A DNA stretch of 64,000 bases from an uncultured Gammaproteobacteria bacterium (lineage in GTDB: Bacteria > Patescibacteriota > Microgenomatia > Woykebacterales > RBG-16-39-9b), in contig CAYHXX010000003.1 in assembly GCA_964360785.1 (NCBI GenBank), positions 22,911 to 86,910 of the forward strand. Reading direction: 5' to 3'. The position numbers were made by a program, and so were the translations under genes. Each line of letters starts with the position of its first letter. Position 1 is the stretch's first letter. Below, in pieces: positions 14,426-34,637 of this stretch. The notes under the pieces were generated by a model. That model was given only the letters and a program-made list of their open reading frames with translations. It ran no database searches and was not told where the DNA came from.

Positions 14426-14575
14426 TGGGCAGGGTAGAACTATTCATCAATCGATTTTAAGGTAGTCAGTAGGTTCGAACAGTCTACCGACTTGAAATCC
14501 TGTCAATAGGGTATTTTGGGTAAAAGACCCACTCCAGCGCGGGAAAATCCTTTGCTGTGACGGGAAATCGTACTT

Positions 14576-14607
14576 AGATTATTTCACAATCCGAAAAAAA
14601 ATGTCAA
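14576..14607 (-). promoter_or_regulatory. Candidate sigma70-type promoter for the giant gene: perfect TTGACA and TATAAT separated by a 20-nt spacer containing a T8 homopolymer.
   Basis: Minus strand: TTGACA-TTTTTTTTCGGATTGTGAAA-TATAAT. The giant-gene ATG lies about 150 nt downstream. Confidence 0.35.
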
Positions 14608-14660
14608 GGCCCGATCTCTTTAATATATATACAGAAAAATTTCCGTGGTAAGATTTTATT

Positions 14661-15455: not shown

Positions 15456-15457
15456 GG

Positions 15458-15478
15458 TGACAAGGTCCGTCCTTGTCA
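15458..15478. repeat. REP-like palindrome (variant): tGACAAGG-TCCGT-CCTTGTCA.
   Basis: 7-bp stem GACAAGG/CCTTGTC and a 5-nt loop. It sits between the c-like gene stop and atpF. Confidence 0.6.
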
Positions 15479-15491
15479 AAGGTAAGAATTT

Positions 15492-19036: not shown

Positions 19037-20473
<1,437 letters not shown>

Positions 20474-20480
20474 TGTAGAT

Positions 20481-20509
20481 TTGGCTAAATATGCATTTTC
20501 CACTATAAT
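20481..20509 (+). promoter_or_regulatory. Promoter TTGGCT-17-TATAAT, 8 nt upstream of the ATG of 20518..22740 (leaderless-type).
   Basis: Exact 17-nt spacing. The -10 ends 8 nt before the ATG. Confidence 0.45.
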
Positions 20510-20517: not shown

Positions 20518-22740
20518 ATGCCCAGGATAGTCAAAAAAACTCTTGCAAGTTTTGTCCTCGCAATACTTTTTGCAAGTATAGTTCCAATTCAAAACTCAAA
20601 CGCAGTTGTTTCTTCCTGTACTGCCAATATCACTCCAAACCAAGTTGCAAGTGGTTCAACCAACAACTTCTCGCTGACCGTCACCAATACTTCCGGACAA
20701 GTGATCAATTGGGTCAGAATCACCCGTCCCAACAGCAACTTTACCTTGGGAGGTATTATTGCTTCGCTTTGGACGATAGTTGCTACGTCTGACAACTTCA
20801 CACTAACTGGTAGAACGATCAATTCTGGAGCAAGCAAAACTTTTTCCCCGACCAGTGTTGTGGCAGCTAGTACTGACCAGCCAGCCGCCAATTGGTCGGT
20901 GTTAGCCTCCGATAACGCTAGTGGGGCTTCTCCAACTAGTTGTACCGGGACGCTAGGAACCCAGATCGGGAATCCAGATGTGACTGCGCCAACTATTTCG
21001 GGTATAACTGTTTCCAACATAACCGCGGGAGGCGCGAGCATTTCTTGGACGACAAACGAATTATCAGATTCAAAAGTAAACTTTGGAACCTCGATCTCTT
21101 ATGGGCAAAATGTTGCAAGTGCAAGTTTAACAACAAACCATTCACTGAACCTGTCCGGGCTTTCCGCCAACACCGGTTACCATTTCCAAGTTCAAAGCAA
21201 GGACGCGAGTAACAATACCGCCAGCTCATCAGACAACACTTTTCTGACTGCGGCCGTTAGCCCCACTCCAACTCCAACCACCACGGTCACAACCACCACG
21301 ACAACTGAAAAACCAAGTGTAAGTACGGATAGTACTTTACCGATGGTTAGTTTAACCACAAACCTCACAGCAGTTTATAAAGAAACGCCGACAATCCTTG
21401 GATTAGCAAGTGATAATGTAGCGCTACAAAAAATCGAATACTCGATTGACGCAGGCGAGAATTGGTTGCCAGTGGATAAAAGCGTTGGTTTAAATACAAA
21501 AAAAGCTAGTTTTGAGTTCAAACCAGCGGGCTTGCCAGATGGAAACTACGATATTCTCGCTCGTGCTTTTGATACAAGTAACAACGAAGGCCGGGGAGGA
21601 GAGTCGGTTTTGATCATCGACCAGCTGCCACCGATCATTGGGCCGAACGTAGTTTCTTTTGGATCACAAGCAGCTAACGTAGAGAATAACCTAATCTATG
21701 CAGTCATTGGGGTCGACCAACGGATTACTCTAGCCACCATTGGTGGCCCGACAAGTGTGGGCATCAAAGCTGTCTCAAAAGACGAAAGAGCAAAACTTTT
21801 CTCGCTGACCAAAGAATTAGGTAGCAATCTTTGGTCAGGAATTTTAGCCTTCGAAGAACCAGGGGAGTACACACTCGTTGCCACCGCCAAAGATGGTGCT
21901 GGCAACATTGTCTCCCGTGAACTAAACAACGTTTTTGTCAATAAACCTTCTCAGGTGGTTAATGCTGAGGGTAAGGCACTAGAGAATGCTAAAATCGAGG
22001 TAAATTATTTTGATGAGGAGAGTTCCAGTTGGTACCTTTGGGACGCAGCTGCCTTTGGACAGAGCAATCCGCAAACAACCAACGCCAAGGGTGAATTTAA
22101 CTTCTTTTTACCCGCTGGGAAATATTTCCTCAGAGCAGAGTCAGAGGGTTACTATTCGGAAAATAGTGAGATCTTTGTCTTGAAAGAGGGTCTGCCACTC
22201 GCTGCTAGTATCAAACTGGAAAAAAGCTTTGGCATAAAGTTAGCGGACTTTAAGCTTGTTTTCCCGAGAATTAGTTTGGAAGGTTTTAAGGTTGATCTTG
22301 GGAATAAGGTATTGGTTTCTGATCAAGCCTCAAATTTGGTCAACAAAAATTTGCCTGCTTTCACCCTCCAAAATAGTCAGAAAGGGATTTTGAATGAAAG
22401 TTCCTTGTCAGGTAAGAACACTTTGTTGTCATTTGTGGCTACTTGGTCGCCCTGGTCTGAAGAGCAGATCGCCCAGCTAGAGAAATTAGCTGCAAGTGGT
22501 GAAGGTCAAAATATTTTCTTGATTACAACACTAGAGTCTCAGGAAAAGGTAGCTGCCTACAAGAAAATTGGTAACTACGAGGTTGAGTTCTTGGTTGATC
22601 CGACTGGAGGGATCTTGTCCAAGTTTAATATTCTGACAATTCCCTATCATTTAATTGTTGGCGAAGACTTACAAGTCAAAGAAGCCAAAACCGGCGTTTT
22701 TTCAAAAGAGGAATTGCAAGAAGCCTTGGATAAACATTAA
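20518..22740 (+). CDS. Secreted multidomain protein: signal peptide, FN3-like domain, Thr-rich linker, Ig-like and CarboxypepD-reg-like domains, then a C-terminal TlpA/thioredoxin-like domain whose CxxC is replaced by SPWS.
   Basis: N-terminal MPRIVKKTLASFVLAILFASIV signal. FN3-like ISGITVSNITAGGASISWTTNELSDSKVNFGTS...TGYHFQVQSKD. CarbopepD-like AKIEVNYFDEES...GEFNFFLPAGKYFLRAESEGY. TlpA-like LSGKNTLLSFVATWSPWSEEQ. Paralogue of 25595..27853. Confidence 0.7.
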   Translation: MPRIVKKTLASFVLAILFASIVPIQNSNAVVSSCTANITPNQVASGSTNNFSLTVTNTSGQVINWVRITRPNSNFTLGGIIASLWTIVATSDNFTLTGRTINSGASKTFSPTSVVAASTDQPAANWSVLASDNASGASPTSCTGTLGTQIGNPDVTAPTISGITVSNITAGGASISWTTNELSDSKVNFGTSISYGQNVASASLTTNHSLNLSGLSANTGYHFQVQSKDASNNTASSSDNTFLTAAVSPTPTPTTTVTTTTTTEKPSVSTDSTLPMVSLTTNLTAVYKETPTILGLASDNVALQKIEYSIDAGENWLPVDKSVGLNTKKASFEFKPAGLPDGNYDILARAFDTSNNEGRGGESVLIIDQLPPIIGPNVVSFGSQAANVENNLIYAVIGVDQRITLATIGGPTSVGIKAVSKDERAKLFSLTKELGSNLWSGILAFEEPGEYTLVATAKDGAGNIVSRELNNVFVNKPSQVVNAEGKALENAKIEVNYFDEESSSWYLWDAAAFGQSNPQTTNAKGEFNFFLPAGKYFLRAESEGYYSENSEIFVLKEGLPLAASIKLEKSFGIKLADFKLVFPRISLEGFKVDLGNKVLVSDQASNLVNKNLPAFTLQNSQKGILNESSLSGKNTLLSFVATWSPWSEEQIAQLEKLAASGEGQNIFLITTLESQEKVAAYKKIGNYEVEFLVDPTGGILSKFNILTIPYHLIVGEDLQVKEAKTGVFSKEELQEALDKH

Positions 22741-22754
22741 ACTAAATACAAGCT

Positions 22755-24356
22755 ATGCTGCCATTACAGTTTTTCGGTCAAAATATTAATTTCGCCCTTA
22801 ATCTATTTTTTAGTTTAGTTACCTTTGCAACTTTTTGGTTGTATTTTGCCGCTTGGTTGGGTCAAAAAAAGCTGCAAAGCTCATTTAAATGGTTCGCTTT
22901 TCTACTAATTTCAGCTTCGTTCTTGTTTCAAGCGGTTGTTATCGACAAAGAAATATTGGGAGATTCACTTTTTGCTAACTACCCTGAGAATCTTGCTTTA
23001 GTAGTGAGAGCGGTTGGTTACGCTGTCTTGGTTTTTGCCTTGATCAGAGAACCGTTGCAATCACCGCCAATTATTCCAGTTAGTTTACCAAAGCCAAAAC
23101 GAACTCATAAGTTGTTAATGCCGTTTAGTCTGACAATAGTTCCCAAAGTATTACTTCCGGTCGGAGCGTTCGCGGTCGCTTTTCTCTACTTTCGGAAGGC
23201 AACCGATGGGATGGAAAAGCACTTAAGAGCAGTCGCTTTTGCTTTCTTATCCCTGGCTGTTTATGAAGTGCTTGGGCTTTCAAGTCTTTTTCGTGAGACG
23301 ACAAACATCACTATTTCAAATCTAATTGCTCCCTTCGGACCAATCTGGGCTTTGCAACAAGTATTCTTGCTGATTTCCCTTGTGATACTTGGTCGTTGGG
23401 TTTGGGGCTACCTGCTTAAACGTTTGCAAAGCCAGTTATTTATTATTTTTACCAGTACTGTTTTAGTTATTTTTCTAGTTATCAGCATTGGTCTTACTTT
23501 CTTGTTGATTAAAAATATTGAAAAAAGCGCTTTGGACAACTTGGAGACAGCTTCAAAAGTTCTTAACTATAGCTTGGATTCGAAGAAAGCTGAATTGTCA
23601 GCTATTGCAGAGGTTTTTACCCAAAATCCAGAGATCTCAGCAGCAGTATTAGCAAAAGACCACAACAAACTCAATTTGCTCGTTTCCAAATCTCTTGAAA
23701 ACAAGAAAATCTCCTCGCTTGTGATCACGACCAACGCTGCGATGGTACTCTCACGTGCCGAAGACCCGGACAGCTGGGGAGACTCTTTATCGAGTGATGC
23801 CTTAGTTCAAAAGGCAATCTCCGGTAGCAACCAAACTAGTATTGTGACCAAGGTAGGGAATCTTGTACCGGCGGTTTACCTCCAATCGGCCCAACCAATA
23901 CTAAAGGACTCTGCTGTGGTCGGTACTGTTTTGGTAGGTTTGGCGATCTCAAACAATTTCCTTGATGGTATAAAAACCTCAACTGGCTTGGATAGCGCTA
24001 TTTACGCTGCGAATACCAGAACGGCGACGACCATCCTTGCTCCCGATAAGAAAAGCCGTTGGGTTGGAATCAAAGAGGAAAATTCGCAAATCAAAAAAGA
24101 GGTCTTAGAAAAAGGGCAGACCTTTAAAGGTAGTTCTAGCTTGGTCAACAGACCCTTTCTGGTGGTCTACAAACCACTCAAAAATGTTAACAATGAGATT
24201 GTTGGGATGATTTTTACGGGACAGCCTGAAGTTTCTATTTTGCTTGCAGCCGGAAGATCAATTGAGTTGGTGTTTATTTTAGCCGCTGTTCTTCTGATTA
24301 TTTCCCTGGTTCCAAGCTATCTAATTTCAAAATATATCGCTTATCAATTAAGCTAA
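22755..24356 (+). CDS. Membrane sensor-like protein: N-terminal multi-TM region, an extracytoplasmic Cache/PDC-like domain of about 270 aa bracketed by TM helices, and no cytoplasmic output domain.
   Basis: Hydrophobic N-terminus. The sensor-like region ...WGDSLSSDALVQKAISGSNQTSIV...VNNEIVGMIFTGQPEVSILLAAG is followed by a terminal TM and a stop. Paralogue of 27857..29455. Confidence 0.55.
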   Translation: MLPLQFFGQNINFALNLFFSLVTFATFWLYFAAWLGQKKLQSSFKWFAFLLISASFLFQAVVIDKEILGDSLFANYPENLALVVRAVGYAVLVFALIREPLQSPPIIPVSLPKPKRTHKLLMPFSLTIVPKVLLPVGAFAVAFLYFRKATDGMEKHLRAVAFAFLSLAVYEVLGLSSLFRETTNITISNLIAPFGPIWALQQVFLLISLVILGRWVWGYLLKRLQSQLFIIFTSTVLVIFLVISIGLTFLLIKNIEKSALDNLETASKVLNYSLDSKKAELSAIAEVFTQNPEISAAVLAKDHNKLNLLVSKSLENKKISSLVITTNAAMVLSRAEDPDSWGDSLSSDALVQKAISGSNQTSIVTKVGNLVPAVYLQSAQPILKDSAVVGTVLVGLAISNNFLDGIKTSTGLDSAIYAANTRTATTILAPDKKSRWVGIKEENSQIKKEVLEKGQTFKGSSSLVNRPFLVVYKPLKNVNNEIVGMIFTGQPEVSILLAAGRSIELVFILAAVLLIISLVPSYLISKYIAYQLS

Positions 24357-24357
24357 T

Positions 24358-24386
24358 TTGAAAGCAGTCGAGTATCGAGTTATAAT
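24358..24386 (+). promoter_or_regulatory. Promoter TTGAAA-17-TATAAT, 6 nt upstream of the receiver ATG at 24393 (leaderless-type).
   Basis: Exact consensus -10 and 5/6 -35. Confidence 0.5.
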
Positions 24387-24392
24387 TTGAGC

Positions 24393-24767
24393 ATGGCGAA
24401 AATACTTATAGTCGAAGATGACGAACTAATCTCAGGAATGTATCAGAGTATTTTTACTTTTGATAAGCATGAAGTCGCGATTGCCAGTGATGGGGAAGAA
24501 GCCCTGGCTAAGATTGGCGGGTTCAAACCAGACTTGGTTCTTCTTGATATCATGATGCCAAAGATGAACGGTCTACAGGTTCTAGATAAGATCAAAGCTG
24601 ATCCTGAAACAAAGGCTATTCCCGTGGTGATGCTGACCAATCTTGATGCCAAGCAGGATGCGGAAACTGCCCTAGCAAAAGGGGCTATAAAATATATCGT
24701 CAAGAGTAACTATAATCCCAAACAAATTAGTGACATGGTAAAGGATATCTTGGCTGAAGTTTCTTAA
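24393..24767 (+). CDS. Stand-alone response-regulator receiver domain (CheY-like).
   Basis: MAKILIVEDDELISGMYQ...LLDIMMPKMNGLQVLDKIK...PVVMLTNL...KYIVKS. The ATG at 24393 is preferred over the track's TTG at 24387. Same N-terminus as the paralogue at 32958. Confidence 0.8.
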   Translation: MAKILIVEDDELISGMYQSIFTFDKHEVAIASDGEEALAKIGGFKPDLVLLDIMMPKMNGLQVLDKIKADPETKAIPVVMLTNLDAKQDAETALAKGAIKYIVKSNYNPKQISDMVKDILAEVS

Positions 24768-24771
24768 TTAG

Positions 24772-25107
24772 GTGTTTACCCAAACTTTTCTTATGGATAT
24801 TGATGTCAGCAAACTGCCTACAACCTCAGCATACAAAGTCGATCGACTTTTTGTGACGGTTTATTCACTCGGCGCGCTGCAAAAACCGCCTTTCCAAGGC
24901 TTTGTCAAAAGTATCAGTTCGGTGGATACAAAAGGCCCGTTTGATATCCTACCCGTACATGAGAATTTTATTACACAATTTTCAAAAAAACTCGAAATTT
25001 TACCAGAGACAGGGGACAAGATTAGCTTTGAACAACCAACTGGCGTGATTGAAGTTGCCAACAATGTTGTCAAAATTTTTTTAAAAAAGAAAGAAACAAA
25101 GTCTTAG
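24772..25107 (+). CDS. atpC: F-ATPase epsilon-subunit-like protein (N-terminal beta-sandwich only). Possible alternative start at ATG 24793.
   Basis: ...TKGPFDILPVHENFITQF...PTGVIEVANNVVKIF aligns to epsilon GELGILPGHAPLLT...GGILEVQPNKVTIL. 111 aa, lacking the C-terminal helical hairpin. Confidence 0.45.
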   Translation: MFTQTFLMDIDVSKLPTTSAYKVDRLFVTVYSLGALQKPPFQGFVKSISSVDTKGPFDILPVHENFITQFSKKLEILPETGDKISFEQPTGVIEVANNVVKIFLKKKETKS

Positions 25108-25122
25108 TTTGAGGAGAACACT

Positions 25123-25494
25123 ATGAAAAAAATATTGATTGTTGAAGATGACATAAACTTACTCAATCTTTATAAAGAAGTATTGACGAGGGAAGGGTAT
25201 GAATTAAAGTTAGCTGAGGATGGAGGTGAGGCGTTGCAAATAGCTGCCAGTTTCCAACCTGATATCGTTCTCTTGGACCTGATGCTGCCATACGTGGATG
25301 GGTTTAAGGTTCTTGAAGAGCTAAAATCCAATCCGAAGACAGAGCACTGTTTTGTCATTGTCCAGACCAATCTTGACTCAGAAATGCAGCGACAAAAAGC
25401 CAAGAATCTCGGTGCCAATGAATTCTTGGTTAAATCCGAGAGTGATCCCGGAAGTTTGATCGAAGATATCAAACACCTTCTCGCCACACACTAA
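25123..25494 (+). CDS. Stand-alone response-regulator receiver domain.
   Basis: MKKILIVEDDINLLNLYKE...VLLDLMLPYVDGFKVLEELK...VIVQTNL. SD GAGGAG 6 nt upstream. Confidence 0.8.
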   Translation: MKKILIVEDDINLLNLYKEVLTREGYELKLAEDGGEALQIAASFQPDIVLLDLMLPYVDGFKVLEELKSNPKTEHCFVIVQTNLDSEMQRQKAKNLGANEFLVKSESDPGSLIEDIKHLLATH

Positions 25495-25503
25495 AAATCC
25501 TAT

Positions 25504-25524
25504 TGACAAGGCCCGTCCTTGTTA
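25504..25524. repeat. REP-like palindrome TTGACAAGG-CCCGT-CCTTGTT.
   Basis: Intergenic, after the receiver at 25123..25494. Confidence 0.7.
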
Positions 25525-25558
25525 CTATAGAAGGGCGTTTTATTTTCTGGTTTTGAGT

Positions 25559-25587
25559 TTGACCAGAAGCTAGTTTTTCAATAGAAT
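25559..25587 (+). promoter_or_regulatory. Promoter TTGACC-17-TAGAAT, 7 nt upstream of the ATG of 25595..27853.
   Basis: 5/6 and 5/6 matches with 17-nt spacing. Confidence 0.45.
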
Positions 25588-25594
25588 AGAAGTA

Positions 25595-27853
25595 ATGCCC
25601 AAGTTTGTTAAAAAACTAGTTTCAGTAGCTATCATTGCCGGAATTTCTTTTCAGTTTGTTCCAACCACCGAAGTAAAAGCAATAATTTCCTCATGTTCTG
25701 CTAGTGTTGTCCAGCATTCCGCTTACATTAACAGCAGCGTCGATTTTTCAATTCAAATCACAAACACTGCTCAGGAAGATATTAGTTGGATTAGGATCCA
25801 AAACCCTTCTTCAGGGGACTTCACGATTCAGGGCAGCAGTGTTTCCGGTTGGGATGCTAGTGGGGATGCAGTTAACCAGACCTTAACCGCAGGAAGTCTA
25901 CCTAGCGGTCAGTCTCTAAACGTTGTTGTGACAGCAACAACTGGTAGTCAACCGCGACCTTCCGCCGATTGGTTTGTCGAAGTTTCCGATGATGGTGGGG
26001 GAAGTAATCCATTTGCTTGCCCCGGTAATTTAGGAACAGAGATAATTGATCCTGCGGACCAGCCGGTGATTAGTAATATTTCTGTATCTAGTATTACTAC
26101 CAGCTCGGCTATTATTTCATGGGATACAAATGAATTGGCCAACGGAGCGGTAAACTATGGTTTCACCTCGAGCTACGGTTCAAATCAAAACAACCCCAAC
26201 CTCACAACTGCCCATTCGTTTACCTTAGAAAATTTATCGCCAAACGCCACGTACCACTTTAAAGTGCTAAGTGCTGATGTGTTCGGGACAAGCAGTCAAT
26301 CAGGGGACAATACTTTTCTGACACCGGCTGCCAGTCAGTCCGGACAATCAAGCAGTTCGGGTCCTAGCAGCAGCACTTCTACCGGCGAAAGTATTTTAAA
26401 AGAGTTAAAGCTAAAAGCCACAGAAAAAATCCCACCGACAATGACAATTTCAACTGATTTTTCCAAACCTTTTACAGCTGCCCCAACAATAGTTGGTACA
26501 GCTAGCGACAACGAGGCGATTTACTTAGTCGAATATTCAACTGACAATGGTAAAAATTGGCTCCCGGTCAATAATTTGGTCGGACAAGGTCAAAAGCAGG
26601 CAAGTTTTGATTTTACACCAATAAATCTTGACGATGGGAATTATAAAATCGTCGCTCGGGCAACTGACACTTCTGGTAATCAGGCTAGTTCACAAACCTA
26701 CACTTTGGTAATCGATCGCCTACCGCCAACAGTTGGCGCAGGTGTAATTTCTATTGGACCGCAAGTCCTGAAGCCAGATAGTGATGGGGTTGTCACTACC
26801 GTTGCTGGTCTTGATCAAAAAGTAACCTTAGCTTCAGTTGGTGGGGCAACCCAAGTCACTATTCGTTCAGTTGACACGAATGTGAAGTCTGGTGCCAACA
26901 GCCAAGTTTTTGCTCTTTCCCGCTCTAGCCAAACTGGTCTTTGGTCAGGGATTCTCAGTTTTTCCAAAGAGGGTTTAAATACTCTTTCGGTCGAAGCGCT
27001 TGATGGTGCCGGCAACAAGACCAAGCGGGACTTTGGCAATATCCAGGTACTGTCCGGTGGCCAAATAACCGAGAAAGATTCCAAAAAACCAATAACTCAA
27101 GCCAAAATCACCCTGTATTATCTTGAGACAGAGTCAAATTCTTGGGTGGTTTGGGATGGGTCTTCTTACGGTCAGAAAAATCCACAGCAAACAAGTAAAG
27201 ATGGTCAATTTAGGTTTTTTGCGCCAGCCGGCAAATATTACCTACAGATCTCGGCATCCGGTTACAAGACCGTCATCAGTAAAATTTTTGCCGTGGACCA
27301 AACAGTCCCCTTAGCCCAAAGTATTTCTCTAGAGAAAGCTACCAAAATTGGTTTTGACCCTCTTTCCTTTACCTTGCCGTCTTTGACACTCGGAAAAATT
27401 GAGATAGTCCCGAGCCAGAAAAAAGTTGACTTAGCTAAAACTGCGAGCTCTTTGGTAGACAAATCCTTGCCGAGTTTCAACCTTGAAAAAACCAGCGGGG
27501 GGACGACCAATCATGTCCAACTCTCCGGTAAGCCAACTCTCCTTAGTTTTGTTTCAACCTGGTCACCAGCGTCCCAAGAGCAGTTTCAGGTCTTGGACAA
27601 ATTACAAAACAACCAAGATTTGAATATTTCACCAGTTGTAGTAATGGAATCAACGGCAAAACTTGTCTCTTACAAAGCAATCTCGAAGTTAGAGTTGGAT
27701 TTTTTAGTTGATCCCGATGGTACAACCGTAAGTTCTTTTGGCTACCAAAGCCTACCCACGCACTATTTTGTCAACCGAAAGGGTATTATCAAAAAGATTA
27801 CGATCGGAGTATTATCAGAGAAAGAGATTTTGGATAATCTCGGAGCTTTGTAA
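25595..27853 (+). CDS. Secreted multidomain protein, paralogue of 20518..22740 (FN3-like, CarbopepD-reg-like, Cys-less TlpA-like with SPAS).
   Basis: MPKFVKKLVSVAIIAGISF signal. ISNISVSSITTSSAIISWDTNELANGAVNYG...YHFKVLSAD. GQFRFFAPAGKYYLQISASGY. LLSFVSTWSPASQEQF. Same domain order as 20518..22740. Confidence 0.7.
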   Translation: MPKFVKKLVSVAIIAGISFQFVPTTEVKAIISSCSASVVQHSAYINSSVDFSIQITNTAQEDISWIRIQNPSSGDFTIQGSSVSGWDASGDAVNQTLTAGSLPSGQSLNVVVTATTGSQPRPSADWFVEVSDDGGGSNPFACPGNLGTEIIDPADQPVISNISVSSITTSSAIISWDTNELANGAVNYGFTSSYGSNQNNPNLTTAHSFTLENLSPNATYHFKVLSADVFGTSSQSGDNTFLTPAASQSGQSSSSGPSSSTSTGESILKELKLKATEKIPPTMTISTDFSKPFTAAPTIVGTASDNEAIYLVEYSTDNGKNWLPVNNLVGQGQKQASFDFTPINLDDGNYKIVARATDTSGNQASSQTYTLVIDRLPPTVGAGVISIGPQVLKPDSDGVVTTVAGLDQKVTLASVGGATQVTIRSVDTNVKSGANSQVFALSRSSQTGLWSGILSFSKEGLNTLSVEALDGAGNKTKRDFGNIQVLSGGQITEKDSKKPITQAKITLYYLETESNSWVVWDGSSYGQKNPQQTSKDGQFRFFAPAGKYYLQISASGYKTVISKIFAVDQTVPLAQSISLEKATKIGFDPLSFTLPSLTLGKIEIVPSQKKVDLAKTASSLVDKSLPSFNLEKTSGGTTNHVQLSGKPTLLSFVSTWSPASQEQFQVLDKLQNNQDLNISPVVVMESTAKLVSYKAISKLELDFLVDPDGTTVSSFGYQSLPTHYFVNRKGIIKKITIGVLSEKEILDNLGAL

Positions 27854-27856
27854 GAT

Positions 27857-29455
27857 ATGCTGCCCATTGCTTTTATCAGTCAAAACCTACACTTTGCCAT
27901 CCAACTCTTTGCAGCCTTGGTCTGCTTTGCTGTCTTCTGGCTGTATTTTGATGCTTGGCTCGCCCGAAAACAGAAGAAAGAAACTCTGCTTTGGGTAGGT
28001 TTTTTGCTACTTTGTGTTTCCTTTATTATCCACGCGACGGTAATCGAACAAGCTGTTCTGGGTAATTCTTTTCTCGGTGATATTACTGAGGGGTTATCGG
28101 GTGTAATTAGACTTTTTGGTTACCTCTTAATTATTTTTGGCCAGCTCAGAGACCCGCTACAGAGCGTTCCTAAAACTGAAGGAGTCAAACTAGAAAAAGC
28201 CCCTGCTATAGTTGGCCTGGGTTTTGTTAGCAATTGTTTAGTGTTTCTGCTACCCGTTGGTAGTGCGCTTTGCGGCTTACTTTACTACAGGCGGGCAACT
28301 ACTGGGTTGGAAAGGCATTTGCGAAAAGTAGCTTTAGCCTTTTTTGGTTTGGGGGTTTTTGAGCTACTGTCTTTATCGAAGTTCTTACAAACCTCCGACA
28401 ACCCTTTTTTATATAGCCTGTCCTCAAGTTTTGGTGCGATTTGGTATTTGGAGCACGCCGTTTTAGTTGTCAGCATGGTTTTCCTTGGTTTATGGGTTTG
28501 GCAATATTTAATTACGCGTTTGCAGAGTCAATTATTTATGATCTTCACTGGTACAATTCTGGCTATTTTTCTACTGACGACAATTAGTTTTACCTTTCTT
28601 TTGATCAACAATATTCAAAACGAGTCGTTGAGCAACCTGGCGACTGCCACCAATGTTTTAAATTACTCACTTAATTCCAAGAAAGATGAAACCCTCTCGA
28701 CCACCGAGAGCTTGGCAGGCAATCCGGATTTTGTTTCTGCAGTGCTTGCCAAGGATCACAAAAAACTCAACCTTCTCGGTCAAGGAGTTCTCGAAGACAA
28801 GAAGAAATCTTCAATTGTTGTCACTGATGATTCTGGTTTGGTGTTGTCTCGGGCCGAGGAGCCTGATCGTTGGGGTGATTCGTTGTCAGACGACCCGTTG
28901 ATAAGAAGATCTTTAGTTGGGTTGGAAGGAAACAGTATATCAACTAAAGAAGGCATTCTCGCACCCTTAATCTATATCAAATCAGCTGTTGCGATGCGGG
29001 ATCAGAACAAAAACATTATTGGCAGTTTGACAGTTGGTATTTTGGTTGATAATGCCTTTCTTGACGGTGTAAAAGCTGCAACCGGTCTGGATAGTGCTGT
29101 TTATGCTGGCAATACACGCGCTGCCACCACCTTTCTGGCAGAGGATGGCAAGTCGCGGTGGGTCGGAGTTAAAGAAGAAAGCTCGGAAATCAAGAACCAA
29201 GTTCTAAAAAAAGGTAGTACCTTCAAAGGTAGTGTTTCGGTTCTCAACAGACCCTTTATCGGCGCTTACAGTCCGCTGCGGGACGTTAACAACGAGATTG
29301 TGGGAATGATCTTTATTGGTAAACCCCAAAGCTCGATCTTGTTGGCGGCTGGCAAAAGTATTGAGCTGACGTTTCTAGTGGCAGTAGCCTTGATCTCACT
29401 CTCGATAATTCCGTCTTTCTTTGTATCACGTTACCTGAGTAGGCAGCTATCTTAA
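27857..29455 (+). CDS. Membrane Cache/PDC-like sensor protein without an output domain, paralogue of 22755..24356.
   Basis: MLPIAFISQNLHFAIQLFAALVCFAVFWLYF... . Conserved ...WGDSLSDDPLIRRSLVG...VNNEIVGMIFIGKPQSSILLAAGKSIEL..., then a terminal TM. Confidence 0.55.
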   Translation: MLPIAFISQNLHFAIQLFAALVCFAVFWLYFDAWLARKQKKETLLWVGFLLLCVSFIIHATVIEQAVLGNSFLGDITEGLSGVIRLFGYLLIIFGQLRDPLQSVPKTEGVKLEKAPAIVGLGFVSNCLVFLLPVGSALCGLLYYRRATTGLERHLRKVALAFFGLGVFELLSLSKFLQTSDNPFLYSLSSSFGAIWYLEHAVLVVSMVFLGLWVWQYLITRLQSQLFMIFTGTILAIFLLTTISFTFLLINNIQNESLSNLATATNVLNYSLNSKKDETLSTTESLAGNPDFVSAVLAKDHKKLNLLGQGVLEDKKKSSIVVTDDSGLVLSRAEEPDRWGDSLSDDPLIRRSLVGLEGNSISTKEGILAPLIYIKSAVAMRDQNKNIIGSLTVGILVDNAFLDGVKAATGLDSAVYAGNTRAATTFLAEDGKSRWVGVKEESSEIKNQVLKKGSTFKGSVSVLNRPFIGAYSPLRDVNNEIVGMIFIGKPQSSILLAAGKSIELTFLVAVALISLSIIPSFFVSRYLSRQLS

Positions 29456-29459
29456 AGCT

Positions 29460-30596
29460 ATGAACAAAGTTCAAACCAAGGTCATCATTCTTTCAATCGT
29501 GTTGTCGGTAATTATAGGTCTAGGATCTATTTACTTTACCTCTGCCAACCAGAAAAGTGTTCAAGCACTGTTCAAGAGTCGACAAGAAGAAAAAGAGGCT
29601 CTTTTTGATAATTTACTCAAATTGAAATCAGCTTCTCTGCTGTCCTATGCTTACGACTATACCTATTGGGATGAGATGGTCAAGGTAGTAGAAGAGGGAG
29701 ACGAAAAAATTGCCAAAGAAAACATTGACACGAGTCTTGCTACCTACGGAGCCAACGCCGTTTGGGTCTACCGACCAGATTTCTCCTTGGTATATTTTGT
29801 CGGCGATGAAAAGGTAGGCAGTTCTAAGAAAGTTTCACTGGAGACAAACGATTTGGAGAAAGCATTTGGAGCAGGTTTGTTTCCGCATTTTTATATCAAA
29901 ACGGGGGCTGGTTTGATGGAGCTGGCCGGCGCACCAATCCAACCCACAAGTGATACTGAACGCAAGACTACACCGCGCGGTTTTTTTCTGACAGGCAGAC
30001 TTTGGGACAAGGGTTATCTTGATGAACTAGCAGGTTTTATGTTTGGACAGGTAGAGCAAACCAGCACAGACGACAAAGATGGGCATCTGACTGAAAGTAG
30101 TCTAAAAGATGGGGTTATATTTTTCGAAAGACAACTCAATGGTTTTGATGGTAAGCCAGTCGACTCAATTCATGTTGAAGCCACGACACCGACAACTACA
30201 CTTTTGAGCCAAACCACAAACAATCATATGTACTATCAAGTACTATCATCTATTTTTGCTGTCTTTTTGGCAATGTTTTTTCTTGCTCGTTGGATTATCT
30301 ACCCACTTATTCGAGTTTCCAGAAGCCTTGCTGAGGGCGATACTAAGTTTATCGCAAGCCTAACAAAAAAGCGCGATGAGTTTGGGCAAGTGGCACAGCT
30401 GATAGTAAAGTTCTTTGAGCAAAAAGTATTACTGGAAAAAGAGGTAGCGGAACACTTTAGGGCAGAGAAAGAGATGCAAAGACAAAAGGACGAGCTTGAA
30501 CGAATCAACAAGACCATGATTGACAGAGAATTAAAAATGATTGAATTGAAAGAAAGAATTGCCGACCTTGAATCTAACTTAAAGGAAGAGAAATAA
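29460..30596 (+). CDS. Membrane sensor with a CHASE4-like periplasmic domain, TM helix, HAMP and coiled coil, and no output domain.
   Basis: N-terminal TM. LLSYAYDYTYWDEMVKVVEEGD resembles the CHASE4 DYA-WDDTY motif. Second TM. HAMP-like IYPLIRVSRSLAEGDTKF...GQVAQLIVKFFEQK. C-terminal coiled coil. The stop is 2 nt before the kinase gene. Confidence 0.5.
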   Translation: MNKVQTKVIILSIVLSVIIGLGSIYFTSANQKSVQALFKSRQEEKEALFDNLLKLKSASLLSYAYDYTYWDEMVKVVEEGDEKIAKENIDTSLATYGANAVWVYRPDFSLVYFVGDEKVGSSKKVSLETNDLEKAFGAGLFPHFYIKTGAGLMELAGAPIQPTSDTERKTTPRGFFLTGRLWDKGYLDELAGFMFGQVEQTSTDDKDGHLTESSLKDGVIFFERQLNGFDGKPVDSIHVEATTPTTTLLSQTTNNHMYYQVLSSIFAVFLAMFFLARWIIYPLIRVSRSLAEGDTKFIASLTKKRDEFGQVAQLIVKFFEQKVLLEKEVAEHFRAEKEMQRQKDELERINKTMIDRELKMIELKERIADLESNLKEEK

Positions 30597-30598
30597 GA

Positions 30599-32935
30599 AT
30601 GGATACACCAGAAAAAGTTTCTAGTGATGTTGATTTTTCTCAAAAATCCAAGCTGATTTATCAGTTTTCTAGTGTTGGTTTCGTTTCTCTGATTCTTTTT
30701 GGGATCGTCAACTTAACACAAGGGCAAACTTCTTCCGGAATAACTGAGCTTATTTTTGGTTTGGCTATTCTGGGCAATATGGCCTATCTACACTGGCAAG
30801 GTGACGTAGAATTTGCTGCCAATGGTGTACTTTTGCTGATGCTTGGGGTACTGACTTTTCTCCTTGTTGATGGTGGTATTGATAAATCCGGGCTTTTTTG
30901 GTTTTATACTTACCCGGCCTTGGCTTTTTTTCTCAAAGGTCGGAAAAAGGGTGTAGTTTGGATTTCGGTGCTGCTATCAATGGTAGTACTAGTTACTGTA
31001 ATGAGTATGTTAGCTTTGGTGGAAATACCTTTCTCCGATGTGATTATCCGCCAACTCTTGGTTAGTTTATTCGTTGTTTCTTTTTTGATTTATCTCTACC
31101 AACAGGTTAATGAGAAGAAAGAGAAGTTGCTCGAAACCGATCGCCAAGATCATGAAAAGCAAACGCATATTCTTGAGGAAAAGGACTTGGTTATCCAAGA
31201 GACCTTAAAAGGAGTTGAGGAGCAAAATCAAAATTTGTCCAATACCAAGCTGGCAATGCTCAATGTTTTGGAAGACGCCAAGGAATTGCAGACAAAACTA
31301 CAATCTCAAACTGATGAATTGCGCAAATTCCAACTCGCAACCGAAAGTTCCTATGAGCACATAATTATCACTGACAGTAAAGGTGTGATTCTCTACGCCA
31401 ACCCCGGAGCGGCGCGCAACACTGGTTATTCGATTGAAGAAATGATTGGCAAGACGACGGCTCTTTGGGGTGGTCAGATGGACAAAGATTACTACCAGAA
31501 GATGTGGCAGACTTTGGTTAAAGATAAACAGCCTTTTGTCAGTGAAATTACCAATAAACGCAAAAACGGTGATAAATATATCGCCCAGTTAAAAATCTCA
31601 CCGATTTTGGACGACAAAGATGAAATTAAGTTTTTTGTCGGTTTGGAAAACGATATCACCAAAGAACGAGAACTAACTACGCATCTGCGTGAAGAGAAGG
31701 CGAATGTTGAGCTCAAGGTGCAGGCACGGACAAAAGAGCTTCAAGATGAGCAGGGGAAATTACAGGCTTCAATCAACAGTTTGAATGTTGGTTTTGTAAT
31801 GACCGATACTGCCTACAATGTTGTTAATATCAATAGCACGGCTAAGCGAATTCTTTGTATTAACGATTTCAAGACAATATTGAAGGATCCAAGTAGTATT
31901 GGTTCCAATTGTAGTTTGGAAGATATCGAAGCGAACCTAAAAAATGTTGTTGATCTTCGACAAAATATCAAAAAATGTTTGAGCGAGAAAAATATTATCA
32001 ATATTGACGATATCAGCTTTAACAACCGCTTTCTGCACTTTTTCCTCTCGCCAATCGCACTCTACCGTGAAAAACTGGATATCATCGGTGTTGTAATTTT
32101 GGTTGAGGATGTCACTGAAGCCAAAATTTTGGCCAGATCCAAAGACGAGTTTTTCTCAATCGCTTCCCATGAGTTGCGCACACCTCTGACCGCGATTCGG
32201 GGAAACACGGCTTTGATGAAAGATTACTACTTTGACAAAATCCGAGATAAAGATTTGAAAGTTATGATCACTGATATTCATGAATCTTCAGTACGACTAA
32301 TACAAATCGTCAATGATTTTTTGGATACTTCTCGTTTGGAGCAAGGTCGGATCGATTTCCACAACGAAGACTTTGACTTGCCAACGGTGATTGAGGAAGT
32401 TGCTAAGGAACTAGAACCCAATCTTGCAGCTGCGGAACTCTATTTAAAGCTGAAGCCATCCAATGTCCCGATCCCACTTGTGATTGCCGATCGCGATCGG
32501 GTTAAACAAATTTTGATCAATTTGATCGGCAATGCGATTAAATTTACCGAAGAAGGCGGAATTTCAATTGCACTGTCCCCAAAGTCCTCATCTGTGAAGC
32601 TTTCAATAACCGATACTGGTAAGGGTTTGACCGAGGAGAATAAAAATTTGCTTTTCCGCAAGTTCCAGCAAGCAGAGGACAATATTTTGACTCGGGATGC
32701 GACGCGGGGGACAGGGCTTGGGCTCTATATTTCCAAGCTTTTGATTGAGGGTATGGGCGGGAAAATCTATTTGGAGGCTTCCGAAGAGAAGAAAGGTTCA
32801 ACTTTTAGCCTTGAATTGCCAGCAGTGGCCAAGATCGAATTGGTCGCTCCGGAGACAGCAGAGGGTCCAAAGAAGAGTAAAAGAAAATTTAAACCAAGTA
32901 ACACTCCAGCAAAAAAGAAAGTTGTCAAAAAATAG
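30599..32935 (+). CDS. Sensor histidine kinase: N-terminal multi-TM region, PAS domain, HisKA and HATPase_c.
   Basis: H-box FFSIASHELRTPLTAIRG. N-box IGNAIKFTEEGG. G-boxes ITDTGKGL and GTGLGLYISKLLIE. PAS-like region around ...ATESSYEHIIITDSKGVILYANPG... Confidence 0.85.
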   Translation: MDTPEKVSSDVDFSQKSKLIYQFSSVGFVSLILFGIVNLTQGQTSSGITELIFGLAILGNMAYLHWQGDVEFAANGVLLLMLGVLTFLLVDGGIDKSGLFWFYTYPALAFFLKGRKKGVVWISVLLSMVVLVTVMSMLALVEIPFSDVIIRQLLVSLFVVSFLIYLYQQVNEKKEKLLETDRQDHEKQTHILEEKDLVIQETLKGVEEQNQNLSNTKLAMLNVLEDAKELQTKLQSQTDELRKFQLATESSYEHIIITDSKGVILYANPGAARNTGYSIEEMIGKTTALWGGQMDKDYYQKMWQTLVKDKQPFVSEITNKRKNGDKYIAQLKISPILDDKDEIKFFVGLENDITKERELTTHLREEKANVELKVQARTKELQDEQGKLQASINSLNVGFVMTDTAYNVVNINSTAKRILCINDFKTILKDPSSIGSNCSLEDIEANLKNVVDLRQNIKKCLSEKNIINIDDISFNNRFLHFFLSPIALYREKLDIIGVVILVEDVTEAKILARSKDEFFSIASHELRTPLTAIRGNTALMKDYYFDKIRDKDLKVMITDIHESSVRLIQIVNDFLDTSRLEQGRIDFHNEDFDLPTVIEEVAKELEPNLAAAELYLKLKPSNVPIPLVIADRDRVKQILINLIGNAIKFTEEGGISIALSPKSSSVKLSITDTGKGLTEENKNLLFRKFQQAEDNILTRDATRGTGLGLYISKLLIEGMGGKIYLEASEEKKGSTFSLELPAVAKIELVAPETAEGPKKSKRKFKPSNTPAKKKVVKK

Positions 32936-32951
32936 CTGGTAACAGTATAAT
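32922..32951 (+). promoter_or_regulatory. Promoter TTGTCA-18-TATAAT, 6 nt upstream of the receiver ATG at 32958. It lies inside the 3' end of the kinase gene.
   Basis: Perfect -10 and 5/6 -35. Confidence 0.45.
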
Positions 32952-32957
32952 CTCATT

Positions 32958-33350
32958 ATGGCAAAAATATTGATAATCGAAGACGACCCTCTGATGTCTC
33001 GGTTGTACGAGAAGATTTTTACCTTTGAAAAATATGAAGTCGTCTTGGCAGATAATGGCCAGGACGGATTGGATAAGGCGAGAACTGAGAGTCCGACACT
33101 GATATTGCTTGATATCATGATGCCGAAAATGAATGGCCTACAGGTCTTAGAGAAGCTTAAGGCCGATCCGGACCTAAAAAAGATCCCGGTCGTGATGCTC
33201 ACCAACCTAGCTGGGGATAAAGATGCCGAGACAGCGCTAGCCAAGGGTGCAGTCAAATATATTATCAAAAGTAATCAAGATCCCAAGCAAGTTTCCGGCA
33301 TGGTCAAAGAAATTCTTGCCGGTTACACCCGCGACGAAATCCCTACCTAA
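32958..33350 (+). CDS. Stand-alone response-regulator receiver domain.
   Basis: MAKILIIEDDPLMSRLYEKIF...LLDIMMPKMNGLQVLEKLK...PVVMLTNL...KYIIKS. Paralogue of 24393..24767. Confidence 0.8.
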   Translation: MAKILIIEDDPLMSRLYEKIFTFEKYEVVLADNGQDGLDKARTESPTLILLDIMMPKMNGLQVLEKLKADPDLKKIPVVMLTNLAGDKDAETALAKGAVKYIIKSNQDPKQVSGMVKEILAGYTRDEIPT

Positions 33351-33354: not shown

Positions 33355-33376
33355 TTGACAAGGCCCGTCCTTGCAG
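33355..33376. repeat. REP-like palindrome TTGACAAGG-CCCGT-CCTTGCAG, immediately 5' of the RAYT gene.
   Basis: Perfect consensus copy 15 nt upstream of the RAYT ATG. Confidence 0.7.
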
Positions 33377-33390
33377 AGTAAATTACTCCC

Positions 33391-34050
33391 ATGCCAATTC
33401 GCAAAACTAGTTTTTTTGAAAATGGTTTTTATCATGTCTACAACCGCGGCGTCGAGAAGCGGGAGATTTTTCTTGACGAAAAAGATTACCAATCTTTTGT
33501 CGGTATTTTAAAAACTTATCTTTCAGAAGATATATCAAACAATAGTGAAATTACGTTGCAAGGACGGGCCTTGCAGGGCAAACGAATCAGAAAACATAGC
33601 CTTGGCGAGGAAGTGAGTCTGGTTGCATATTGCTTGATGCCGAATCACTTTCATCTATTGCTGCAGCAAAGATTCTCAACGTCGATTACAAATTTTATGC
33701 GTCGGGTTCTAACAGCCTACTCGATGTATTTCAATGATCGTTACGAACGGGTAGGGAGTTTATTCCAGGGCCGCTTCCAAGCCAAAGATATTTCCAATGA
33801 CGAATACCTATTGCATTTAACTCGTTACATTCACCGCAACCCAGTCGAAGCAAAAATAGTTAAAATTCAAAACTTAGAAAAATTTAAGTGGTCCTCTTAC
33901 CAAAATTATCTGGGGTTAAAGGAGGTCGTTTGGGTGAAGTCAAAAGCAATTCTTGATTACTTTTCGTCAATAGAGAGCAACAAAGACTACAGGAGTTTTG
34001 TTGAATTCGAGTCGGAAGAAAATCTTCCAGAAAGTTTACAAATTGACTAA
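33391..34050 (+). CDS. IS200/IS605-family HUH tyrosine transposase of REP-associated (RAYT-like) type.
   Basis: YHVYNRG...LMPNHFHLLLQQ (HUH motif)...LTRYIHRNPVEAKIV (catalytic Tyr). Single copy, bracketed by REP palindromes at 33355 and 34057, with one more inside at 33556. Confidence 0.75.
   Translation: MPIRKTSFFENGFYHVYNRGVEKREIFLDEKDYQSFVGILKTYLSEDISNNSEITLQGRALQGKRIRKHSLGEEVSLVAYCLMPNHFHLLLQQRFSTSITNFMRRVLTAYSMYFNDRYERVGSLFQGRFQAKDISNDEYLLHLTRYIHRNPVEAKIVKIQNLEKFKWSSYQNYLGLKEVVWVKSKAILDYFSSIESNKDYRSFVEFESEENLPESLQID
33556..33576. repeat. REP-like palindrome in inverted orientation (TTGCAAGG-ACGGG-CCTTGCAG), inside the RAYT CDS and in frame.
   Basis: Encodes ..LQGRALQG.. within an insertion of about 20 aa between the YHV and HUH motifs. 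Confidence 0.55.
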
Positions 34051-34226: not shown

Positions 34227-34637
34227 ATGAAAAGTGATGAAGAGTTACGAAAAACTTTTAAGATCGCAGTCAATGATACCAATTTGATTCAGGTCGCCAT
34301 TTATTCAAGCGAATCCGATGAAGGTGACAATGGTCGCCAAGCCGAACTTGTTGTCGAGGGAATTGGTCAAATTGTTGGAGCTGATACAAGTAAAACTTAT
34401 AAATTTCTAGTTGATTTATCTGTTTCCGGAACTATTCATTCGCTTTCCCCGAAAGCCCGCAAAGCCTACGAGAGCTTAGGTCGGTTCAATAATATCGACA
34501 AAGCGGCGGTGGTCGGAAAAAGTCTATTTTTGGAAGTCACGGTAAATCTAATCGTCCAAACTCTTGGTCGTGGTAGTAATTTCAAATGGTTTGAAAATAT
34601 TGACGAGGCCAGAAAGTGGTTAGCTGAAGGTCCTTGA
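34227..34637 (+). CDS. Small hypothetical protein, possibly STAS/DUF4325-like.
   Basis: 136 aa. C-terminus ...VVGKSLFLEVTVNLIVQTLGRGSNFKWFENIDEARKWLAE resembles the end of STAS-fold proteins. Its TGA stop lies inside a degenerate REP. Confidence 0.3.
   Translation: MKSDEELRKTFKIAVNDTNLIQVAIYSSESDEGDNGRQAELVVEGIGQIVGADTSKTYKFLVDLSVSGTIHSLSPKARKAYESLGRFNNIDKAAVVGKSLFLEVTVNLIVQTLGRGSNFKWFENIDEARKWLAEGP

Follow-up and report, generated by a model that had tools for sequence, protein, structure and literature searches.

A secreted protein, an output-less Cache protein, a histidine kinase and a receiver form a conserved gene module of Patescibacteria, present in two old copies at one ATP synthase locus

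Introduction

When sensor, kinase and receiver proteins are encoded side by side, each on a polypeptide of its own, do they form a signalling system that works in separate parts, or are they broken pieces of ordinary kinases? A 64,000-nucleotide (nt) stretch of contig CAYHXX010000003.1, the whole of which we call the window and to which all coordinates refer, raises this question. It encodes two secreted proteins (A1 and A2), two membrane proteins with a Cache domain (B1 and B2), a CHASE4 protein, a histidine kinase and three receivers (REC1, REC2 and REC3), all on the + strand together with the genes of an F-type ATP synthase (atp genes; Table 1). A sequence-only reading had described these genes as a tandemly duplicated signalling cassette assembled from separate sensing, transmitter and receiver polypeptides, perhaps with the secreted proteins as redoxin-like ligands or co-sensors. 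That observation is confirmed in part, being largely right with six corrections, and the interpretation is supported in part. The open reading frames (ORFs) were all found, separated by 2-100 nt, and the same genes occur, identical, in two Hainich aquifer assemblies (ERZ1292618 and ERZ1292616) that were made independently from two groundwater samples.

Results

A conserved four-gene module

We surveyed one genome per GTDB species, which gave 49 loci (48 with a full-length B) from Saccharibacteria, Woykebacteria, Woesebacteria, Roizmanbacteria, WWE3 and unnamed Patescibacteria, and labelled the ORFs of each locus by phmmer with the window proteins as queries. A was present in 45 of the 48 loci and lay directly 5' of B in 36. 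Among the 39 loci with at least 4.5 kb of downstream sequence, a HisKA kinase was found in 36, and a stand-alone receiver was also found in 36. Unsupervised clustering of the neighbouring ORFs returned the same four families, B (50 loci), A (48), kinase (46) and receiver (40), while the next family occurred in 16. The order A–B–kinase–receiver is kept across about 48 species-level genomes, and the four genes are a conserved module of Patescibacteria.

The kinase N-terminus differed by lineage and consisted of two transmembrane (TM) helices around a periplasmic domain (CHASE4, or dCache_1 with HAMP), of 6-8 TM helices, or of none of these; in four species a soluble kinase of 352-401 amino acids (aa) without TM helices directly followed B. 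The dimerization and catalytic core of the kinase was mostly 50-62% identical to that of the window kinase across species. A, B, the kinase core and the receiver are thus the constant parts of the module and the kinase input domain is the interchangeable one.

In 16 loci (e.g. L003 6952-7518) the gene for A or the receiver has beside it a gene for a protein of ~150-250 aa whose N-terminus is disordered and which has one TM helix. This protein was mostly found in Saccharibacteria-type loci and is missing from the window; it may be a fifth component specific to certain lineages. Several metagenome-assembled genomes with the module bear the title 'uncultured Gammaproteobacteria/Pseudomonadales bacterium' and one 'Candidatus Acidoferrum' (among L005, L028-L030, L034, L036, L038 and L042); these titles are probably taxonomic mislabels.

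Membrane protein B has Cache domains and no output

In B, seven TM helices precede a double Cache domain outside the cytoplasm, which is followed by one last TM helix; there is no cytoplasmic output domain. The Pfam families dCache_3, sCache_3_3 and Cache_3-Cache_2 matched with E-values down to 1e-23 (B1: dCache_3 6.9e-22, sCache_3_3 2.6e-21). A Cache/PDC fold flanked by TM helices together with a Cache profile match is what defines a sensor of the Cache superfamily, and structural matches of this region included the LuxQ periplasmic domain; the output module that is attached to Cache in characterised Cache receptors is missing from B. All homologues end ~8 residues past the last TM helix, and B1, B2 and 12 aligned relatives share the C-terminus RYLxxQL just past that helix. 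The more than 350 homologues, with named sources in Saccharibacteria, Woykebacteria and the 'Patescibacteria group', were all ~530-570 aa long, aligned over their full length and carried Cache domains only. The membrane proteins of both copies had been described as multi-TM Cache proteins without output, and the Pfam matches, the TM scan and the uniform C-terminus of the relatives bear this out. The description of sensing, transmitter and receiver functions as residing on separate polypeptides likewise held, given the conserved architecture and the uniform B homologues.

We also searched 1.84 billion cluster representatives exhaustively by HMMER with B residues 1-255 and obtained 313 matches. 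Among the best 150 of these 313 the membrane domain was always N-terminal, and the full-length proteins were ~520-560 aa with none longer than 661 aa. By this search the 7TM domain appears confined to the architecture seen here and never fused to an output domain (best 150 of 313 matches), and no Pfam family was found for it. Conserved cytoplasmic features of B were limited to short loops (RRATTGLERHLK, YLTxRFQSQ) and the RYLxxQL tail. A frameshift or assembly artefact is ruled out for B, the CHASE4 protein and the receivers by the uniform homologues, the shared C-terminus and the two assemblies.

Secreted protein A has lost the thioredoxin active site

Pfam found a signal peptide, fn3/Pur_ac_phosph_N, Big_13, CarboxypepD_reg and AhpC-TSA domains in A. 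In A1 the signal peptide is followed by an N-terminal domain, FN3, Ig-like domains, CarboxypepD_reg and a C-terminal thioredoxin fold, and the TM scan detected one hydrophobic segment only, at the N-terminus. The C-terminal domain matched AhpC-TSA above the cut-off (6e-10 to 7e-10), indicating a thioredoxin fold of the AhpC-TSA/TlpA type, and matched ResA/DsbE structures by sequence with E about 1e-8. The FN3, CarboxypepD-reg and TlpA-like calls of the sequence-only reading were therefore correct as to domains but not as to a TlpA-type active site, since the CxxC is replaced by SPWS in A1 and SPAS in A2; in an alignment of A2 with Bacillus subtilis ResA, WCPHC aligned to WSPAS. Cysteine occurred at either CxxC position in 0 of 47 A family members, and the only two conserved cysteines of the family are both in the N-terminal domain. 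The thioredoxin-like domain is thus redox-dead. Redox chemistry of A is excluded because both active-site cysteines are substituted family-wide, which disposes of redox sensing and of the redoxin-like role suggested for the secreted proteins.

The CHASE4 protein and the kinase

The CHASE4 protein matched PF05228 (3.3e-17, 63 bits against a cut-off of 26) between TM helices 8-26 and 262-280 and carries no output domain. The segment that follows the second TM helix, which is where HAMP would be expected, resembled HAMP weakly (PF00672, E=0.03, 15.1 bits against a cut-off of 25). Of the CHASE4-HAMP protein without output that had been proposed, CHASE4 and the lack of output are supported by Pfam and HAMP is sub-threshold.

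The kinase gave HisKA and HATPase_c matches of 8.7e-18 and 3.5e-24, and its H, N and G boxes are intact (SHELRTPL with His524, NLIGNAIKF, DTGKGL, GTGLGL). The N-terminus contains 4-5 TM helices and matched MASE6 at a borderline level (PF20966, E=6.5e-6, 26.7 bits against a cut-off of 27.4, profile positions 11-168 of 170); MASE6 is annotated in the relative L057. Pfam called one PAS domain, and a second PAS-like stretch was present. The kinase had been read as PAS-HisKA-HATPase without a large sensor; those domains were found by Pfam, but the protein is not sensor-less, having membrane (MASE6-like) and PAS domains of its own. We found no Response_reg or Hpt domain in the kinase and no Hpt-like protein among the scanned window ORFs of at least 150 aa. 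Since there is neither an Hpt domain nor a fused receiver, the predicted domain content is not that of a hybrid kinase or a phosphorelay.

One locus, L001, encodes a single 716-aa protein in which CHASE4 is fused to HisKA-HATPase. The window CHASE4 protein aligned to residues 1-372 of this fusion (40.5% identity), and residues 346-741 of the window kinase aligned to residues 308-711 (50.6% identity). Such a fusion counts as Rosetta-stone evidence for joint action of the CHASE4 protein and the kinase. The sequence-only reading had stated that orthologues fused into ordinary hybrid kinases would point to frameshifts. The L001 fusion answers to this in part; a frameshift in the window does not account for the split, as the window kinase extends 345 residues farther at its N-terminus (MASE6-like and PAS) and has its own start codon and a frame other than that of the CHASE4 ORF. 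A stand-alone CHASE4 form of 377-391 aa recurs in L005, L057, L040 and L056, and because the split form is found in these four other lineages we regard it as a conserved state. The sensor-domain assignments as a whole, Cache and CHASE4, are supported by Pfam profiles.

Three receivers with intact pockets

REC1, REC2 and REC3 are 126, 123 and 130 aa long and contain Response_reg alone (E 1e-23 to 1e-26; 1.7e-25 for REC1). Response_reg was the sole Pfam match in each, so the claim that none of the three has an effector domain stands, and no output-bearing response regulator was detected among the scanned window ORFs of at least 150 aa. D11/D12, D54, T84 and K106 were invariant in the three-receiver alignment, showing that the phospho-acceptor pocket is intact. 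Taken with the H, N and G boxes of the kinase, the DD/D/T/K residues predict an intact kinase–receiver phosphotransfer pair. The best NCBIfam match of stand-alone type was the DVU0259/DivK-like family, far below its cut-off.

REC2 is of a different orthologous type, with 37-39% identity to REC1 and REC3, and its orthologues adjoin atpC in L005 (67.5%), L054 (66.7%) and L057 (62%). REC1 is a diverged paralogue of the module receiver and the fastest-evolving receiver of its type. REC3 is 92% identical to the receiver of L005, its closest relative. The module receivers of relatives are 131-133 aa long and mostly 62-77% identical to REC3, even where B falls to 33-40%. In relatives with atp genes the receiver was more conserved than F1 beta (77.5% against 59.9% in L001, 92% against 84% in L005). 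The REC3 type is an orthologous group of its own across Patescibacteria.

The two copies are old paralogues

The paralogy of A1 and A2 (39% identity, E=1e-171), of B1 and B2 (51%, E=0) and of REC1 and REC3 (65%) is far beyond chance. A recent tandem duplication was considered and rejected: B1 shares more identity with proteins of other metagenomes (64%, 63% and 57%; P0068 64%, P0061 57%) than with B2, and in a neighbour-joining tree B1 and B2 fall into separate clades, Saccharibacteria-type sequences branching nearer B2 than B1 does. The copies called tandemly duplicated are thus old paralogues. The repeated pattern of A, B and receiver fits copy 1 (A1-B1-REC1), which has no kinase; it does not fit copy 2, where REC3 comes after the CHASE4 protein and the kinase.

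The arrangement of relatives depended on the type of B. In B1-type relatives the module lies between atpD and atpC, as does copy 1 of the window: L054 reads atpD-A-B-kinase (532 aa)-REC-atpC-SpoIIAA-like-REC2 type, and L056 reads atpD-A-B-REC-atpC-CHASE4. In B2-type relatives it lies 3' of atpC, as in L001 (atpD-atpC-A-B-[CHASE4-HisKA-HATPase]-REC) and L005 (atpD-atpC-...-REC2 type-A-B-CHASE4-(PAS/coil protein)-MASE6-PAS-kinase-REC); L057 has the layout of L005, with a Y1 transposase-like gene and a giant ORF downstream. The window combines both arrangements. Because L054 is the closest relative of the window by its atp genes (atpD 88.7%), copy 1 can be read as the L054 arrangement minus the kinase, and the loss of the kinase was likely a clean deletion rather than a frameshift. 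The likeliest history is that of two old paralogous modules at the atp locus followed by differential loss; lateral replacement is a possible alternative.

Copy 1 lies inside an atypical atp operon

The signalling genes had been placed between the atp genes and the RAYT. This is right on the RAYT side; copy 1, however, is inside the atp operon, between atpD and atpC, since the ORF between REC1 and REC2 encodes the epsilon subunit. The product of this short atpC (relatives 87-110 aa) comprises the N-terminal beta-sandwich only and gave weak Pfam and NCBIfam matches as a single sequence, the Pfam match being below the cut-off. A profile of six orthologues searched against the PDB matched epsilon chains only (best E 9.7e-5) and aligned to residues ~10-80 of chains of 121-146 aa, the two-helix C-terminal regulatory domain being absent. 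The window protein was 57-68% identical to atpC of close relatives. An epsilon of 77-111 aa, with the regulatory helices missing, was also seen in every locus with a complete atpC (L001, L005, L054-L139). Spacings between REC1 and atpC and between atpC and REC2 are 4 and 15 nt.

By scanning metagenomes with the atpC profile we could assess 39 atpC clusters that lie outside the window clade. A stand-alone receiver, mostly with a small kinase, touched the atp operon in 13 of the 39, an informal count from loci that are related to each other. At least four kinds of placement were found, in which the genes followed atpC on its own strand, followed it in convergent orientation, stood in the gap between atpA and atpG, or lay upstream in divergent orientation. 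Examples are L078, L095, L100, L102, L104, L107, L108, L131, L137/L138 and L085/L088, and in L137/L138 a receiver-kinase pair lies between atpA and atpG. The atp-linked proteins of these clusters were 30-46% (receiver) and 27-37% (kinase core) identical to those of the window and belong to different subfamilies. Genomes of the candidate phyla radiation (CPR) have only about 0.3 kinases per 100 genes (PMC10805038), and with kinases so few the linkage of receivers to atp genes seems more frequent than chance would produce. Saccharibacteria-type loci have no atp gene within 10 kb of the A-B-kinase-receiver module.

In the protein encoded by the first gene of the operon, a signal peptide is followed by an extracytoplasmic domain of ~170 aa and, at the C-terminus, by a two-TM hairpin whose AIxRNPLA loop is invariant. 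Orthologues were found at L064 3708-4451, L001 1736-2512 and L054 1768-2562, and a profile of four orthologues gave 11 matches in the PDB, all to ATP synthase c (best E=0.023, on the loop and TM2). Pfam gave no match to the hairpin alone, so that the similarity to c was seen only by the PDB profile search. The position of the ion-binding Glu/Asp is not acidic, and the sequence suggests a c-like subunit that lacks the carboxylate and is fused to an outside domain. Its gene directly follows a giant - strand ORF in the window and leuS in L064. No gene for a subunit-a-like protein (multi-TM, ~250 aa) was found in the operon (window 14443-16094; L064 3335-5053).

Transcription signals and surroundings

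Five + strand sigma-70-like sites scored at least 10/12, all of them in short intergenic gaps (Table 1), and a hairpin with a T-run lies at 25544-25569, 3' of REC2. The promoter and terminator scan showed no overall enrichment (32 found against 30.6 expected from shuffled controls). The positions of the sites suggest A1-B1, REC1-atpC-REC2, A2-B2-CHASE4-kinase and REC3 as predicted transcription units, and the gene gaps of only 2-30 nt within each module suggest coupled expression. Neither an Rfam family nor a tRNA was found in the window.

Table 1. Features of the atp and signalling locus in the 64,000-nt window.
Feature	Coordinates	Strand	Product, basis or remark
c-like fusion protein	14661-15455	+	signal peptide, extracytoplasmic domain, c-subunit-like hairpin
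b-like protein	15492-16094	+	Pfam / phmmer labels for the upstream atp block
atpH (delta)	16091-16618	+	Pfam / phmmer labels
atpA (alpha)	16620-18107	+	Pfam / phmmer labels
atpG (gamma)	18111-18983	+	Pfam / phmmer labels
atpD (beta)	19061-20473	+	stop 44 nt 5' of A1
A1	20518-22740	+	secreted, 740 aa; Pfam/NCBIfam, family alignment
B1	22755-24356	+	membrane, 533 aa; Pfam, TM scan; B1-type clade
REC1	24387-24767	+	receiver, 126 aa; likelier start ATG at 24393
Short atpC (epsilon)	24772-25107	+	111 aa; begins 4 nt past the REC1 stop
REC2	25123-25494	+	receiver, 123 aa; Response_reg 4.4e-23
A2	25595-27853	+	secreted, 752 aa; Pfam, ResA alignment, family alignment
B2	27857-29455	+	7TM–dCache–TM, 532 aa; B2-type clade
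CHASE4 protein	29460-30596	+	378 aa; TM, CHASE4, TM, weak HAMP-like segment, coiled-coil tail
Histidine kinase	30599-32935	+	778 aa; MASE6-like, PAS, second PAS-like stretch, HisKA, HATPase_c
REC3	32958-33350	+	conserved module receiver, 130 aa; Response_reg 9.4e-26
RAYT	33391-34050	+	IS200/Y1-type transposase-like; Pfam
SpoIIAA-like/DUF7793 protein	34227-34637	+	136 aa; Pfam
Giant ORF	2-14443	-	>4,814 aa, extends past the window edge
Giant ORF	34662-42194	-	2,510 aa
Promoter-like sites	20481-20509 (A1), 24358-24386 (REC1), 25559-25587 (A2), 32922-32951 (REC3), 33355-33384 (RAYT)	+	

The atp and signalling block is bracketed by two giant - strand ORFs. The 2,510-aa protein has phage-integrase SAM-like domains at its N-terminus followed by a long low-complexity, surface-like region, and giant proteins related to the flanking ORFs adjoin the module in ~10 other loci as well as in L001 and L057. 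A RAYT stands at the 3' end of the block in both the window and L057 (15161-15835) and directly 3' of atpC in four further lineages (L115, L117, L120, L121), which makes this a recurrent position. The counterpart of the SpoIIAA-like gene in L054 lies between atpC and the REC2-type receiver; in the window the RAYT separates this gene from the receivers. The SpoIIAA-like protein may belong to the same functional neighbourhood as the atpC/REC2-type genes.

Farther 3', two adjacent + strand genes (42465-43430 and 43466-44497) encode paralogous GDSL-lipase/acylhydrolase proteins, both of which end in a type I dockerin domain. Such a pair is unexpected for CPR bacteria, and the window showed no cohesin partner. 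Three - strand genes (44738-45703, 45730-46809 and 46855-47574) encode a WxLIP_PGBD/Fn3-like surface protein beside two proteins without a Pfam match; ~10 other loci have a homologue of the WxLIP-like protein close to the A-B module.

Discussion

We favour the view that the module is a multi-component two-component system in which A and B serve as accessory extracytoplasmic sensors, and we give it an even chance of being right. We infer every physical interaction and the direction of information flow in this scheme. The Cache domain of B would sense an extracytoplasmic cue, which might be A on its own or a complex of A with something that its pseudo-thioredoxin domain binds, and B would relay the signal to the kinase by protein contact through the RRATTGLERHLK and YLTxRFQSQ loops and the RYLxxQL tail. 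The stand-alone CHASE4 protein would be a second detached sensor for the same kinase, to which the kinase would add its own MASE6-like and PAS inputs. The kinase would then phosphorylate REC3, and probably REC1, and the phosphorylated receivers would bind a strongly conserved protein partner rather than DNA. Copy 1 would presumably rely on the kinase of copy 2. The soluble kinases that directly follow B in four species are what one would expect as the complement to a sensor without a transmitter.

Several observations weigh against accessory sensing by A and B. The sensor region of the kinase varies among two-TM periplasmic, 6-8 TM and no sensor at all while A and B stay constant, and because this membrane part varies, contact between B and the kinase would be confined to the B loops and tail. 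Since each module kinase brings its own input domain, it does not need B as its sensor. The receiver is the most conserved part of the module, which indicates a partner outside it, and the most conserved region of B is its 7TM domain, which could itself be an effector. The predicted structure of B is of moderate confidence (predicted local distance difference test score, pLDDT, 66), and its topology breaks the positive-inside rule at one loop. Some of these points would be explained if information flowed from the inside out, the kinase sensing through its own domains and the phosphorylated receiver binding the loops of B to alter the surface activity of B and A, for example in host adhesion or the control of surface proteins. 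Shuffled kinase inputs beside a constant A, B, kinase core and receiver would fit such a flow, as would receivers that lack an output domain and must act on a protein, cytoplasmic conservation of B that is restricted to short loops and a tail, and the giant and WxLIP-like surface proteins that adjoin the module in ~10 loci and the window. Cache domains, however, are known as ligand-binding input modules, and the receiver is far more conserved than B (64% against 33% in L049), a poor fit if B were its main partner. We also know of no precedent for a receiver acting on a Cache protein, and consider an inside-out flow unlikely.

A and B could also be envelope or surface proteins that are functionally independent of the kinase and receiver and merely co-located or co-transcribed with them. 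A does resemble a surface protein built of Ig-like domains, and small CPR genomes retain long syntenic blocks; yet the association of the four genes outlasts rearrangements that put A or the kinase on the opposite strand and persists where B has diverged to 33% identity. Repeated chance adjacency is unlikely at ~0.3 kinases per 100 CPR genes (PMC10805038), and an output-less Cache protein bracketed by membrane helices has no obvious stand-alone role, making coincidence distinctly improbable. That the sensor-only and receiver-only ORFs are broken pieces of ordinary sensor or hybrid kinases is hardly credible. The fused CHASE4-HisKA-HATPase protein of L001 and the absence from copy 1 of the kinase that L054 has between B and receiver would agree with decay, but the architecture of B is invariant among more than 350 homologues and the best 150 of 313 cluster representatives, the paralogues and 12 relatives share one C-terminus, and the ORFs are identical in two independent assemblies. 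Moreover, the CHASE4-only form occurs in four other lineages, the kinase has its own 345-aa N-terminal region, and a kinase without receiver or Hpt domain is not a hybrid-kinase remnant.

Accessory sensing by A and B is compatible with a further proposal about the output, namely that the receivers, REC2 above all and perhaps REC1 and REC3, regulate the F-type ATPase by binding to it and so stand in for the regulatory C-terminal domain that the short epsilon lacks. Several placements speak for it: copy 1 lies between atpD and atpC in the window, L054/L055 and L056; REC1, atpC and REC2 are closely spaced with a promoter-like site 5' and a hairpin 3'; REC2-type receivers adjoin atpC in four lineages; and the 13 of 39 other clusters have receivers at the atp operon in at least four arrangements. 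The N-terminal-only epsilon in every locus with a complete atpC agrees with this as well. On the other side, the Saccharibacteria-type modules are more than 10 kb from any atp gene, the loci are phylogenetically related so that the counts are not independent, adjacency is not interaction, and no such regulation was found in the literature; we regard direct control of the ATPase as a long shot. A broader claim, that the module is the principal signalling device of many Patescibacteria and that its receivers, which are more conserved than F1 beta, steer core machinery, here an atypical ATPase with a short epsilon and a c-like subunit lacking the carboxylate, by direct binding and not through transcription, seems more doubtful still. 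If true, it would be a new coupling of extracellular sensing to energy conversion in ultra-small symbiotic bacteria.

Full-text literature searches returned nothing on the module, on Cache-only proteins in CPR bacteria or on links between receivers and atp operons, and no described function was found there for the 7TM–Cache protein, the pseudo-thioredoxin protein or the REC3-type receiver. Since kinases are so few in CPR genomes and the module is so widespread, it is probably among the main means by which these bacteria sense the outside, possibly including the host surface. The target of the receiver would reveal how CPR bacteria respond to a signal without a DNA-binding regulator, and integration of the module into an odd atp operon is a concrete lead on that target.

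Two-component systems with accessory proteins include YycH/YycI with WalK and SaeP/SaeQ with SaeS/SaeR. Accessory proteins also control the kinase in QseG–QseE/QseF (PMC12691602, PMC6075780), RocA–CovS/CovR (PMC7028121) and LiaF–LiaS/LiaR (PMC3543457). As in the module, a kinase–regulator pair is encoded in these last three systems with a secreted protein or lipoprotein and a membrane partner; the operon linkage is shared, and the accessory partners, which lack catalytic signalling domains, are believed to act on the kinase through contact. The module differs in that B has a full double Cache and a family-specific 7TM domain, A is a 740-aa Ig-like chain with a dead thioredoxin fold, the receiver has no DNA-binding domain and the kinase sensor varies by lineage. 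Neither A nor B showed homology to the accessory proteins of any of the five systems. If the A–B contact that we infer is real, a soluble protein would be sensed outside the cytoplasm by a Cache/PDC-type domain, much as in LuxP–LuxQ and TorT–TorS, where the tandem-PAS/Cache-like sensor of the kinase has a periplasmic binding protein as its docking partner; LuxQ and TorS, however, carry the kinase on the sensor polypeptide, which B does not, and A does not have the periplasmic-binding-protein fold of LuxP and TorT.

The thioredoxin fold of A is the AhpC-TSA fold of TlpA, ResA and DsbE (CcmG), with WSPAS or WSPWS instead of WCPHC. REC1, REC2 and REC3 resemble CheY, DivK, Spo0F, CpdR and PilH in being receiver-only proteins with an intact phospho-acceptor pocket, and differ from them in that none of the genes nearby encodes an Hpt/Spo0B-like partner, a flagellar switch or any other known target. 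As in chemotaxis with its methyl-accepting chemotaxis protein (MCP), CheA and CheY, sensor, kinase and single-domain receiver are separate and the receiver is predicted to act by protein binding; the module kinase, however, is of the HisKA type and not CheA, and CheW, an MCP signalling domain and methylation machinery were all absent from the window. The module is best read as a two-component system of the accessory-protein type with a chemotaxis-like separation of its components, and is neither a Che system nor a TlpA/ResA oxidoreductase.

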